In this document: in pieces, positions 1 through 4,635 of the stretch
How positions within the stretch are numbered: the first letter of the stretch is position 1
Layout of the letters: each line of letters begins with the position of its first letter
Source: an uncultured Spirochaetota bacterium
Lineage (GTDB): Bacteria; Spirochaetota; Brevinematia; Brevinematales; JAOACQ01
Assembly: GCA_963835575.1 (NCBI GenBank)
Contig: CAWIGG010000002.1
Span: 1,856,001-1,920,000, forward strand
Reading direction: 5' to 3'
DNA length: 64,000 bases
The notes under the pieces: generated by a model
Databases searched by the model: none
What the model saw: the letters and a program-made list of their open reading frames with translations, nothing else
Told to the model about the DNA's origin: nothing
Position numbers and translations under genes: made by a program

Positions 1-995
1 AGCATCCAATATATAGCGACAAGTACCTTTCTTACTAAAGCAACTCTCGCTTTGCCTTTAGTCTTGCCCTTACTCTTCTTTAAATAAAACAAATCCATCT
101 TCCGGCTTGATTTCCTGAAATGATTTATGGATTCCACCATTAAGGTCATCGTTAAATAACGCGATTGTTTGTTTAGATGACCTATTTTTACTGTATTACC
201 GGATGCGTCTATACCCGGTGCTGCCCTGAGATATGAACAGAAATGCTTCACGTTTTTGAATCGGTTGATATCAACAACATCTGCCATAATCCCGATTGCC
301 ATAAAAATGCTTATCCCCATTATACTGACAAGCAGATCTATTTCTTTCTGGAACATCTTACCCGCTATCATTATCTGCTTTTTTGTCTCTTCCATTTTAT
401 TCTCTAAGAAATTGATTATGCTTAAGAGTGATTCTATTTCCGCTCTGACAGTGTCGCTCATCTTGGCGGAAGTAAGATTTTTCTGCACATTCTGATATGA
501 TAAGTTTGCTTTTTTAAATCCGAATATCCCGTTTTGTTTCAACAAAGAGCGGATCATATTTTTATTCATATTCTTCTGTCTTTTATATATGTCATATACC
601 GTGAATAAACTTCTGACCTCCCGAACTTCCTTAGCCGGCATATATACCAGAGGAAACTCAACATCAGATGGATTGAATAAAATATAATACTTCAGTCTGG
701 CGGCTATCTTTTCCGCGTCAATCTTATCCGTCTTCTTATTCGTTCGGTAGATGGTCGAAAACTTCCAGGTATTAATGATATAACACTCCTTGACAAGGTC
801 CTTGATCTGGTCAATGAACCAGAAAGCGTTTGTTGTGGATTCCACCGCTACATAATCCTCTTTTGTCACTATTCTCTTGAACTTGCCGAAATACTCCGGC
901 AATAAAGAGCAGCTCATTCTTTTTGGAACAATCCCTGTGTTATCAAAGCAAGCTGCTTTAAAGTTTTCATCTCCCGGGTCTACTCCGTAAAACAT
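1..995 (-). CDS. IS110-family transposase/recombinase (3' end runs off window)
   Basis: Hand translation from ATG 995 with GGAGG RBS: MFYGVDPGD...VAVESTT...KKTDKIDAEKIA (DEDD RuvC-like) and LVSIMGISIFMAIGIMADVVDINRFKNVKHFCSYLRAAPGIDASG (Transposase_20 domain with SG serine). Absent from the ORF track because it has no stop in the window. Confidence 0.93.
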   Translation of the reverse strand, partial: MFYGVDPGDENFKAACFDNTGIVPKRMSCSLLPEYFGKFKRIVTKEDYVAVESTTNAFWFIDQIKDLVKECYIINTWKFSTIYRTNKKTDKIDAEKIAARLKYYILFNPSDVEFPLVYMPAKEVREVRSLFTVYDIYKRQKNMNKNMIRSLLKQNGIFGFKKANLSYQNVQKNLTSAKMSDTVRAEIESLLSIINFLENKMEETKKQIMIAGKMFQKEIDLLVSIMGISIFMAIGIMADVVDINRFKNVKHFCSYLRAAPGIDASGNTVKIGHLNKQSRYLTMTLMVESINHFRKSSRKMDLFYLKKSKGKTKGKARVALVRKVLVAIYWM

Positions 996-1020
996 TTGAC
1001 ATCCTCCAACTATCGTAGTA

Positions 1021-1282
1021 AAATACCTTTGAGGATCAAAAATTATCCTTCGGTTAAATAAAGGATAAACCTTGACGGGCTGAAAGGCAGCCATTCGTCT
1101 ATTCGGGTTCGGGAGATTCCTCAATTTTATCTCCAGTCCCATTTTGTTGGTAAGGAAGAAGGCTGGACTAAACGAAGGATCGGGCTCCTGACAGGATTTC
1201 TATCCTGGCATCATAATGTCCCAGACAGGCTCCCAGCCTTCTTCTGTCTTATTAATACCTCTACAGTATTTCCTAAAGACAG
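1021..1282 (-). ncRNA. candidate IS110 bridge RNA
   Basis: Downstream of TTGACG-N15-TATAAT (1309..1283, minus): a 5' stem-loop, a 12-bp stem 1155-1166/1233-1244 enclosing a large internal loop and inner hairpin 1192-1207, and further hairpins at 1112-1134, 1078-1092 and 1043-1068. Confidence 0.6.
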
Positions 1283-1386
1283 ATTATACCTTTCTTCCTT
1301 ATCCGTCAAGTCTTTCTATTCCTTTTATCATAACAGCGAAGGGATGGGATGGGAAGGGGTGAGGCCAGTTATTATTTTGATTAAAA

Positions 1387-1477: not shown

Positions 1478-3166
1478 ATGCGCCTTGCAGGCCAGGATAT
1501 ATGGTTGTTTATTCTTATTATATTCTTATCTTTTTCGGCAATCATAGTATTTTTTTATTTATACAAAACAAAAATCATTAACAAAATATTCTCGGAATCT
1601 CAGCGGGAGCTTCTTTTATCCAACCTCAATTTCCGCAGCCGTTTTTTGAAGATTGTCCTGATCATCACGGCTTTGTTTTTCATCTCTTTTTCGCTCCTGG
1701 ATCCCCGCTGGGGTACAAAAAATGTCCAGGCAAGCATCGAAGGCATCGATGTCGTATTTATCATGGACGTTTCCCGGAGCATGCTGACGCCGGATACCGT
1801 TCCCAACAGGCTCGAGGCCTCAAGAAAATTCGCTCTCCAGCTGATGAGCCTGCTTGTGGGAAACCGAATCGGCATAACGGCCTTTGCCGGCTTTGCCTTC
1901 AATGTCATCCCGCTGACGACAGACTTCGACGCGGCGGCGCTTTTTATAAACGAGCTTTCACCTGATATGATCGATATACAGGGTTCAAACTTGGAAGACG
2001 CGCTCAAAAAGGCGCTGGAACTTTTTGAAAAAGAAGCCCTCACTCATAAAGCGATTGTCATCTTTACAGACGGTGAAGACTATGAGTTTTCTCCTCTCAA
2101 AGAGGTAAACAGCATAAAGGAAAAAGGCATTTCCATCTTTACGGTAGGAATCGGTACGCCCGGCGGCGGGCAGATCCCTCTTTATGATGAAAATGGAAAG
2201 TTAACCGATTATCTGAAAAAGGACGGACAGATTGTCATATCCCGGCTGAATGAAGCCCTGCTTACCCGGATTTCCGAAGAAACAAAAGGGGCCTATCTTG
2301 CGGGCAGCGACAATTCGATCATAGAACTTGCCAGGAAACTTGATGAGATTAAAAAAACACAATTCGGCTCCAGCATTTATGATTTTATGGAACCCCAGTT
2401 TCAATATTTTCTCCTGATCGGGATCCTGCTGCTCTTCATATTCCTGTTTCTTCCTGAAAGAAGAATAATTTTCAACCGTTTTACGCTGATATTTTTCATA
2501 CTCTTTTCAAGTATAATTTTCAGCCGGCCTGCTTTCGCATCTGACGCTTCAAAAGGATGCAGAGAGTACCAAAAAGCTAATTATGAGGATGCTCTCAAGC
2601 TTTTTCAAAAATCCATCGTGAAAGACCCGAAAAATGAAAAGCTCCGCTTTAATGAAGGAGATAACTTTTACCAGCTCCAGCAGTTTGACAAAGCCGGCGA
2701 ATCCTTCAGCGCGCTGACAAACTCAAAAAACAAGGAACTCGGAGCCGGGGCTCTCTATAATATGGGTAATTCATACCTGGAAAAACAGGATTATGCCGGA
2801 GCGATCCGGTCTTATAAAAAAATCCTGGAAGATTCCGACGTTTCTTCTGAAATCTACAAGAAAGCCCTTCAGAATTTTGTTTACGCAAAACAGCATCTGA
2901 TGCTGAAAAATCATGACCAAAATCAGTCAAAAGATCAAAATAAGGATAAAAACAAAAAACAAAATGAAAAAGAAAATCCCAAAGATAAATCAAATAAGAA
3001 CAATAATCAGAAAAATAAAGAACAGCAGCAGCAGGTCCGGCAAAAGCCTGTCAGCCCTTCTGAAATAGAAAATCTATTGAATCTCATTGAGGAAGAGGAA
3101 AAAAAGCACCTGAGTGAAAAAGAAAAAACGAAAGGGATCAGGGTTTACCCGAAAAACGAATGGTAG
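1478..3166 (+). CDS. VWA domain + TPR protein (BatB/BatC-like fusion)
   Basis: MIDAS DVSRSM, 'PNRLE', 'FTDGED', TM segments, TPRs (ALYNMGNSY), Q/N/K-rich tail ending KNEW. Confidence 0.85.
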   Translation: MRLAGQDIWLFILIIFLSFSAIIVFFYLYKTKIINKIFSESQRELLLSNLNFRSRFLKIVLIITALFFISFSLLDPRWGTKNVQASIEGIDVVFIMDVSRSMLTPDTVPNRLEASRKFALQLMSLLVGNRIGITAFAGFAFNVIPLTTDFDAAALFINELSPDMIDIQGSNLEDALKKALELFEKEALTHKAIVIFTDGEDYEFSPLKEVNSIKEKGISIFTVGIGTPGGGQIPLYDENGKLTDYLKKDGQIVISRLNEALLTRISEETKGAYLAGSDNSIIELARKLDEIKKTQFGSSIYDFMEPQFQYFLLIGILLLFIFLFLPERRIIFNRFTLIFFILFSSIIFSRPAFASDASKGCREYQKANYEDALKLFQKSIVKDPKNEKLRFNEGDNFYQLQQFDKAGESFSALTNSKNKELGAGALYNMGNSYLEKQDYAGAIRSYKKILEDSDVSSEIYKKALQNFVYAKQHLMLKNHDQNQSKDQNKDKNKKQNEKENPKDKSNKNNNQKNKEQQQQVRQKPVSPSEIENLLNLIEEEEKKHLSEKEKTKGIRVYPKNEW

Positions 3167-3324: not shown

Positions 3325-4635
3325 CTAAAAATGCGAATTTTTTGAACTGCCCTTAGCCATCCTCTTTTTTATTGACTCTGCATGGGCCTGCAGCTCCTCG
3401 AACTCTGCCATGGCCGCGATTTCATTTCCATTTTCTTTTATATATTTCTTTGTGAGCGATATAAAGCTTGTCCTCTTGACAAAATCATATACTCCCAGGG
3501 GAGATGAGAAGACAGCCGTCCCGTTTGTCGGAATGACATGGTTCGGGCCAGCGTAATAATCGCCCGAAGCGACAGGAGACCAGTTCCCTATGAATAGTGC
3601 GCCGGCGTTCTGAATACGGGATATGATTTTATTTGCATCCATTTTAATCATCACCTCGACATGCTCCGGGGCTATCCTGTTCACAATATCAAATCCCTCA
3701 TCATAATTTCCGACAGTCACGGCATAGGCGTTTTCGTTAATCGATTTTTTAATCAGTTCATTCCTGGGCAGATCCGGAATAATTTCAGCGAGGGCTTTTT
3801 CAGTTTTATGTATGAGATTTTCTGAGGTTGATATCAGTATGACAGTATTATCACCTGTATGTTCGGCCTGGGCGCAGAGGTCAAGAGCGATCCAATCCGG
3901 ATTTGCCGAATCATCGGCAAATATCACAACCTCGCTCGGGCCGGCTATTGAATCGATGCCGACATGCCCCATCACAAGAAGTTTTGCCGCGGCGACATAA
4001 ATATTCCCGGGGCCCATTATTTTTGAGACGGCGGGAACCGTTTCCGTTCCGTAAGCCATGGCCGCGATGGCCTGCGCCCCGCCTGTCTTAAAAATACGGG
4101 TGACTCCAAGCTCGGCGGCTAACGCTATTGACAGCGGGTTTTTAATCCTGCCGTCCCGGCCCGGGGGTGTTGAAATATAGATTTCCGGAACACCCGCTAT
4201 TTTAGCCGGGATGACATTCATCAGTACAGTTGAAGGATAGAAGGCGGAGCCTCCCGGCACATATAGCCCCGCTCTTTCGAGCGGGCTGAATTTCATCCCG
4301 TAAAGACAGCCTTTTTTTTTATATAAAAAGCCCTCTTCCTTCTGCTTTTTATGAAATTCACGAATGTTCTTTGCCGCGTTGAGAAAATAACGGGAAACAT
4401 CAGAATAATTTTTTTCGGTCAATTCCCTCGCTTCCTCAATTTCCTTTTCAGTGACAGCAATCGAATAATCATGCGCTTCAACTTTATCAAATTTCCGGGC
4501 GTATTCAATCAGAGCGGCATCGCCGTTTTTCCTGACATTCTCTATCACTTCCGCCGCAATATCAAAATATTTCTGCTCAATTTCATTCATGCTTCTTTTA
4601 TAATTTTTCAATTCCGAATAAGACATCCTTTTCAT
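3325..4635 (-). CDS. hisD: histidinol dehydrogenase
   Basis: GLYVPGG, YPSTVLMN, GGAQAIAAMAYGT, GPGNIYV, AGPSE, QAEH, APEH, GDYYAGPNHVIPT motifs. Confidence 0.97.
   Translation of the reverse strand: MKRMSYSELKNYKRSMNEIEQKYFDIAAEVIENVRKNGDAALIEYARKFDKVEAHDYSIAVTEKEIEEARELTEKNYSDVSRYFLNAAKNIREFHKKQKEEGFLYKKKGCLYGMKFSPLERAGLYVPGGSAFYPSTVLMNVIPAKIAGVPEIYISTPPGRDGRIKNPLSIALAAELGVTRIFKTGGAQAIAAMAYGTETVPAVSKIMGPGNIYVAAAKLLVMGHVGIDSIAGPSEVVIFADDSANPDWIALDLCAQAEHTGDNTVILISTSENLIHKTEKALAEIIPDLPRNELIKKSINENAYAVTVGNYDEGFDIVNRIAPEHVEVMIKMDANKIISRIQNAGALFIGNWSPVASGDYYAGPNHVIPTNGTAVFSSPLGVYDFVKRTSFISLTKKYIKENGNEIAAMAEFEELQAHAESIKKRMAKGSSKNSHF

Follow-up and report, generated by a model that had tools for sequence, protein, structure and literature searches.

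The non-coding region in front of the recombinase gene that opens the window (the whole stretch of 64,000 nucleotides analysed here, from an uncultured Spirochaetota bacterium) is, with a probability that we put at about 0.87, the left end of a 1,465-bp insertion sequence that belongs to a deep, unnamed IS110-superfamily branch, carries ends of the IS1111 type and encodes a two-loop bridge RNA. The two loops, the guides, the handshake bases, the ends, the core and the target are established here at the level of sequence comparison. The first-pass annotation of this DNA had proposed the bridge-RNA locus of an RNA-guided IS110-family recombinase, a proposal which the covariation of the guides and the conservation of two loops now support.

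The element and its genomic setting

The element lies on the minus strand, its 1,465 bp being counted between the two cores, and it is present as one copy in its genome (G000). Its coding features are:

1-995, minus strand: IS110-family recombinase gene, 361 aa, with the start codon at 995, running 88 bases beyond the window start to G000:C2:1855913
1003-1007, minus strand: Shine-Dalgarno GGAGG of the recombinase gene, assigned from sequence

A DEDD RuvC-like domain and a catalytic-Ser domain place the protein among the IS110-superfamily recombinases, and its residues D6, E52, D90, D93 and S265 are unchanged in all 40 aligned homologues. In profile searches it reached 163 bits against NF033542 (cut-off 140) and passed the cut-off of PF02371; PF01548, with the protein truncated at the window edge, gave 26.4 bits, slightly below its cut-off of 29. 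The ~340-bp non-coding end that had been described upstream of a DEDD+Ser IS110 recombinase is confirmed in front of this minus-strand gene (996-1336), the non-coding lengths being 337 nt at the left end and 36 nt at the right.

The insertion point is situated between divergent genes. A BatB/BatC-like VWA-TPR gene (1478-3166, plus strand) and hisD (3325-4635, minus strand) are the neighbours within the window, and rseP follows past the far end of the element (L001:2020-2727, minus strand). A true empty allele was not found among five relatives, three of which matched the rseP side, with the batB side unmatched. In these three congeners no transposase is located within ~1.5 kb of rseP, which is consistent with a lineage-specific insertion. 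The empty target consequently rests on a paralogous repeat and on covariation within the family.

Ends, core and target repeat

The left boundary of the element is composed of the following parts:

1322-1332, minus strand: left subterminal inverted repeat TATGATAAAAG, 11 bp, which opens with the six bases of the -10 box in the circle-junction promoter
1333-1336, minus strand: left-end extension CTGT, 1336 being the element's first base after the core
1337-1338: CG core dinucleotide, with a second copy at the far end (G000:C2:1855870-1855871)
1339-1350, plus strand: host flank, one half of the interrupted GAGCCTGYCGAAGG-type repeat; an uninterrupted paralogue (G000:C4 near 143,290) aligns over the insertion point

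The repeat (1332-1322) has a perfect inverted copy directly past the recombinase stop codon. The distance from CAT to ATG over the junction is 10 nt with the core counted once (3 + 7 bases), and the 7-bp left and 3-bp right terminal extensions of the IS1111 type are thus present. The first-pass annotation took ATCATAA at 1327-1333, identical to 1210-1216, for the terminus. Both copies exist; the stretch 1327-1333 is the outer end of the 11-bp repeat, and the element extends to 1336. The CT core resembling that of IS621, which had been read at the junction, gives way to CG (1337-1338), of which the far end carries a second copy.

The loci retrieved numbered 79 from metagenomes, 29 from genomes and 7 from related genomes, duplicates and the focal locus included; a transposase match was obtained in 114 of them and both ends in 75. 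Reading the 2-nt core as the two letters that lie six bases out from the left repeat and two bases out from the right one, we found it to be the same at both ends in 62 of the 75 loci (CG in 47, TG in 14, CA in 1; four of the 62 are duplicate fetches). The end-finding procedure gave no ends for ISEc11 or the Ruegeria element and mis-called those of IS5708.

The insertion site is a dispersed repeat, GAGCYTGYCGAA, found 43 times in the genome against 2.85 expected. Joining the two flanks restores the repeat GAGCCTGCCGAAGG, of which the genome holds 4 intact copies, and seven relatives with 48-53% identity are inserted in similar repeats. Since a nearby inverted partner accompanies just 6 of the 43 copies, 'REP-like' is a loose label for this repeat. 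The target repeat might be linked to GIY-YIG genes; our literature search found no paper on such a link.

Architecture of the RNA

The predicted RNA is read from the minus strand and has these structural parts:

1244-1282, minus strand: 5' stem-loop before the target loop, from the fold
1155-1244, minus strand: target-binding loop, closed by a perfect 12-bp stem (1244-1233/1166-1155) in which 8 of 10 pairs have changes on both sides
1185-1219, minus strand: distal hairpin within the target loop, of variable length (35 nt in this element, 7-36 nt in relatives)
1091-1151, minus strand: donor-binding loop with a basal CCA/UGG stem, a distal UGGG (1141-1138)/CCCG (1107-1104) stem and a variable hairpin
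1071-1078, minus strand: CCGUCAAG, the 3' arm in a predicted long-range helix with 1310-1303 as its partner; this helix would enclose the whole RNA

The minus strand of the region folds better than its shuffles (z -3.15), as does the plus strand (z -3.08). After removal of 4 duplicates and of 2 loci without a donor-loop anchor, 56 left ends were aligned, forming 38 clusters at 85% identity. Both loops follow a common plan, which runs through a stem, a guide, UGGG, a variable hairpin, CCCG, a guide with the core as its last part, the pair of handshake bases, and the stem again. In this alignment 89% of 900 stem cells are paired, a value that drops to 26-47% in slid controls; double changes occur in 13 of 24 stem pairs, and the stems have a covariation score of 0.327, which falls to 0.156 after shuffling and does not exceed 0.10 when the partners are slid. 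U-G pairs are present in 35/38 and 32/38 elements and assign the RNA to the minus strand. An RNA from the plus strand was considered and rejected because of the gene orientation, the U-G pairs and the wobble in the guides, despite the good folding of both strands. The search of the region against Rfam gave no real match, only two chance ones, and one DNA sequencing run yielded no more than short fragments of relatives.

Several structural details of the earlier reading hold, namely the 5' stem-loop, seen as a hairpin at 1282-1244, and the 12-bp stem 1155-1166/1233-1244, which is perfect and closes the target loop only. The open internal loop of ~25 nt per side has to be replaced by 54 nt folded as guide-UGGG-hairpin-CCCG-guide around the distal hairpin. 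Judged from the aligned sequences, the combination of a separate target loop and a separate donor loop is the canonical architecture. The pairing between the 5' and 3' parts of the RNA is strong (z<-2) in 19 of the 38 elements.

Guides and handshake bases

Six short segments are assigned to recognition:

1224-1232, minus strand: right target guide GAGCCUGUC, complementary, with one G-U, to the flank past the element's far end (outside the window)
1173-1179, minus strand: left target guide UCCUUCG, pairing with plus-strand 1337-1343 (core and flank), with one G-U
1143-1148, minus strand: right donor guide AACA(AA), in the focal copy with 4 pairs (1148-1145) to the left-end extension and then two mismatches
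1096-1102, minus strand: left donor guide AUAGACG, the same sequence as the element's right end plus the CG core
1171-1172, minus strand: target-loop handshake dinucleotide UU, assigned by its first base
1094-1095, minus strand: donor-loop handshake dinucleotide AA, assigned by its first base

The guides were tested for covariation in fixed registers with the core excluded, on 36 cluster representatives that had sufficient flank (the focal element among them) and against 5000 shuffles of the flanks, which came mainly from single insertions. In the first loop the 5' guide (right target guide) complements the right flank at 193 of 288 positions, with a null of 0.28, and the 3' guide (left target guide) copies the left flank at 153 of 216, with a null of 0.32. 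In the second loop the 5' guide (right donor guide) complements the left-end extension in 108/144 cases (null 0.45), and the 3' guide (left donor guide) copies the right end and core in 143/144 at 4 variable positions (null 0.89). None of the 5000 shuffles reached the observed value for any of the four guides; the relatives are kin and not independent, and such tests therefore overstate significance and their figures are not probabilities. With the reversed polarity of IS621, G-U pairs allowed, the agreement is 0.47 and 0.39, close to the null of 0.40 and 0.43. Relative to the gene direction, each loop thus has its top-strand guide 5' and its bottom-strand guide 3', which is the order of IS1111 and the reverse of that of IS621.

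Among 35 elements, 33 have a target-loop handshake whose first base agrees with the base that opens the left-end extension (null mean 18), and in 22 the donor-loop handshake starts with the base that begins the right target flank (null mean 9.1). These are the partners after strand exchange; the pre-exchange partners fit in 4/35 and 0/35. In the focal copy both first bases are imperfect (U against C, A against G). Window position 1336 is C, whereas T would be expected both from the guide at 1148-1143 and from L004, a relative that has the same guide, and this suggests drift in the left end of the focal copy.

The resemblance of CGAAGGATCGGG at 1173-1184 to the flank at 1337-1348, one of the two matches on which the first-pass annotation was built, is genuine for its first 7 nt: 1173-1179 is the true target guide, although it, like several of the motifs listed, had been read on the wrong strand, and the covariation sought there is the 153/216 agreement with the left flank given above for the 36 elements. 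The rest of the match is the conserved CCCG stem arm, and the right target guide (1232-1224) had been missed.

The RNA model also detects the upstream RNAs of two further elements of this genome, with a protein identity of 25-27% and an AG core. Judged by eye, the guide slots of each agree with its own flanks and ends. One is a two-copy IS110-family element with 27% identity to the focal protein (G000:C2:474,500-475,900 and C5:6,900-8,300; L143 and L144); its core is AG, and the two-loop RNA upstream is built on the same plan, with guides that fit a CACRG-AG-(G)ACAC target. A third related element (L145, G000:C2:1,620,041-1,621,203) likewise has an AG core and an upstream RNA, and its gene contains an internal TAG stop. 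The same search left unmatched the upstream RNAs of ISMch4 and of a haloarchaeal element, as well as the RNAs of core IS1111 members.

Promoter-like signals and a proposed mechanism

One further motif lies upstream of the target loop:

1283-1309, minus strand: internal promoter-like TTGACG-N15-TATAAT (1309-1304 and 1288-1283), both hexamers overlapping arms of predicted long-range helices

When the ends are joined, a junction promoter with at least 5 of 6 consensus matches in both boxes, mostly 17 bp apart, appears in 34 of the 38 elements. The internal motif, already pointed out in the earlier reading, is present and belongs to the minus strand. As an ordinary sigma-70 promoter it is doubtful, with its spacer of 15 and its absence from the promoter scan, which covers spacers 16-18. 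Pairing is possible between its TTGACG and CCGTCAAG at 1078-1071. The hexamer at the N15 spacing is poor in close relatives and a complete internal promoter exists in only 3/38 elements; a -10-like hexamer upstream of the target loop (at least 5/6) is found in 23/38, with a null mean of 11.2 and a maximum of 18 in 200 shuffles. The internal motif may serve as an arm of a helix, as a weak promoter, or in both ways. Excision of IS621 depends on read-through transcription, according to a 2026 Nature paper, so an internal promoter here would be a genuine difference.

From the literature on IS621, ISEc11 and ISEc21 it would be logical to suggest the following course of events. The element would excise as a circle, joining a TTGACT -35 box in the right end to the TATGAT -10 box at 1332-1327, 17 bp apart, and this circle-junction promoter would transcribe the minus strand from ~1320 through the RNA and the recombinase gene. 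The target loop would pair with both strands of the GAGCYTGYCGAAGG repeat and the donor loop with both strands of the circle junction, and a tetramer of the DEDD/Ser recombinase would exchange strands around the CG core. The handshake bases would pair only after the first exchange and would in this way drive insertion; Perry 2025 describes the handshake arrangement as pushing IS621/IS622 recombination forward.

Alternative readings

The first-pass annotation favoured a single internal loop of variant architecture, with a donor guide at 1210-1216, a target guide at 1173-1184 and a CT core. It drew on the genuine match at 1173-1179 and on a heptamer shared in full with the inverted repeat's outer end, and yet we find it hardly credible at all, since the donor guides sit in a second, separate loop (1148-1145 and 1102-1096) which covaries with both ends, the core is CG, and covariation at 1210-1216 is absent. 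The heptamer there is a chance match: it falls in a hairpin that varies from 7 to 36 nt, TATGAT or its complement occurs in this place in 2 of 56 loci, and among 2000 dinucleotide shuffles of 1010-1320, 103 contain ATCATAA itself and 1514 (76%) at least one 7-mer derived from the ends. It is also very improbable that the RNA is a correct feature of the family while the focal copy is an immobile relic. The single copy, and the mismatches of the right donor guide and handshake bases with this copy's left end and flank, would agree with a relic; its 361-aa frame is nevertheless open with all catalytic residues, its repeats, promoter boxes and stems are intact, similar mismatches are found in other members, and the lack of a transposase beside rseP in three congeners is consistent with a lineage-specific insertion.

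More weight, though still little, goes to a seekRNA-type form, in which a long RNA would be trimmed to a short target-loop RNA (~1245-1155), the ends would be recognised mainly through the inverted repeats, and the donor loop would be a part of the precursor or auxiliary. In IS1111-family elements seekRNAs of 70-100 nt are the abundant form and an 82-nt form supported movement, as reported in Siddiquee 2024 (PMC11187229), and the focal element combines 11-bp inverted repeats with a weak right donor guide. We consider this form unlikely nonetheless. Conservation is equal in the two loops, and the guides and handshake base of the donor loop vary with the ends, the core and the target, which needs selection on donor pairing. 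The loops could also work as separate pieces, and the donor loop would still keep its role. The two-loop bridge RNA with paired target and donor guides remains the reading that we adopt.

Relation to known elements

The best-scoring named relatives in the profile search are ISMch4 (NZ_CP006994, L118) and an ISH18/ISHvo10-like haloarchaeal element (NZ_CP053942, L119), with 163 and 167 bits, the likeness of the latter to ISH18/ISHvo10 being judged by eye against printed sequences; ISMch4 and ISHvo10 are labelled as family IS1111 in the source data of Siddiquee 2024 (PMC11187229). Like the focal element, both have the RNA upstream of the gene and the same guide order. All four guides of the haloarchaeal element could be mapped in this order, the left guides of ISMch4 by eye, and the haloarchaeal element also shares the spacing core + 5 nt + ATG and CAT + 3 nt + core. 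They differ in protein sequence (24-28% identity), cores and targets, and the focal clade forms a branch separate from them (98/94 support, P0107 included). At the ISMch4-type loci L118 and L120 the left junction reads TA and the right one TG, so that a single T may be the shared core, and the flanks of L118 resemble by eye a part of another transposase gene.

With the core IS1111 members IS4321, ISEc11 and ISPa11, as described in Siddiquee 2024 (PMC11187229), the focal element shares a subterminal repeat of 11-13 bp, the 7 + 3 extensions, the junction promoter and the top-strand guide in first place, and the right end CAT-AGA of IS4321 is the same as ours. In core IS1111 elements, however, the RNA is downstream (255 nt in IS4321), whereas here it is upstream; IS4321, ISEc11 and IS5708 give only 40-62 bits in the profile search and form a separate clade; and many core members have a multi-loop donor region, as given in Durrant 2024 (PMC11208160), in place of the simple internal loop of the focal element.

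IS621 and ISCro4/IS622 (PMC11208160; PDB 8WT6, 9T56), so far as these sources describe them, resemble the focal element in the left-end RNA, the succession of 5' stem-loop, target loop and donor loop, the handshake logic, the repeat target and the DEDD + Ser protein. The IS621 template in the supplement of Durrant 2024 (PMC11208160) shares the scaffold as well (guide-TGGG, A-TGG, CCG-guide-core-handshake-TGG). Their proteins are distant, at 30 and 27 bits; the guide order of IS621 relative to the gene is the reverse of ours; IS621-type elements have a CT core and a 2-3-bp subterminal repeat against CG and 11 bp; and the focal RNA has an extra 5' leader, predicted to pair with its 3' end, unlike IS621/IS622.

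Thus the 11-bp subterminal repeat and the guide order agree with IS1111, in which the long non-coding region would be downstream, and the left-end RNA agrees with the narrow IS110 group (IS621, ISEc21), whose repeat is absent or 2-3 bp and whose guide polarity is opposite. In a tree of 39 rows, without a named IS110-group outgroup, the focal element falls outside the IS4321/ISEc11/IS5708 clade and stands in a poorly resolved group with ISMch4, the haloarchaeal element and ISEc45, the deep order of branches being tentative. The combination of a left-end RNA with IS1111-type ends and polarity leads us to file the element, on its sequence characters, as an IS110-superfamily member in neither strict subgroup, since it departs from each in one defining feature. 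Siddiquee 2024 (PMC11187229) mentions that a few IS1111 members have an upstream non-coding region, and Durrant 2024 (PMC11208160) that the vast majority of IS110/IS1111 elements, not all, follow the rule of RNA position. A 2026 preprint describes 32,190 bridge RNAs modelled in 86 clusters, which may include the focal clade. Our literature search turned up no account of this clade, nor any mapping of guides in IS1111 elements with an upstream RNA; Supplementary Table 5 as well as Extended Data Fig. 10c in Durrant, and the bioRxiv supplements, may list such elements.

Two observations were made on more distant members. The downstream region of ISEc45 (L125) contains a TGGGG...CCCCG-AATAAG motif like the focal donor-loop scaffold. 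A very distant IS110-like gene on a long branch is present six times in almost the same form (L130-L135, on C2, C5 and C6 of the focal genome); the sequence common to all six starts ~14 bases before the start codon, and subsets share more upstream.

One might go further and see in the clade a third, intermediate class of bridge elements, with an IS621-like two-loop left-end RNA, IS1111-type ends and polarity, CG/TG/AG cores and self-regulation by two transcripts. Through a short RNA from the internal -10, the integrated element could supply itself with a guide for excision, and the leader of the longer circle-promoter RNA would pair with the 3' end, compete for the target-loop stem and act as a switch between excision and insertion. 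We regard this proposal as possible, though doubtful.

Significance

The mechanism itself is already known, and the focal element is, on the comparisons made here, a well-supported bridge-RNA locus from a little-described branch, unusual only in that IS1111-style ends and guide order occur with an RNA in front of the gene. The clade offers about 36 naturally reprogrammed elements in which the four guides and the handshake bases are readable throughout. The published IS621 design code, as given in Durrant 2024 (PMC11208160), cautions against cores outside NT, and the CG-core set is a candidate for widening the sites open to bridge recombinases. The position of the RNA at the left or right end and the polarity of the guides are shown to be independent characters, polarity being associated here with long subterminal repeats and not with RNA position. 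This independence bears on the proposal of Durrant 2024 (PMC11208160) that IS110 and IS1111 were split through translocation of the RNA.
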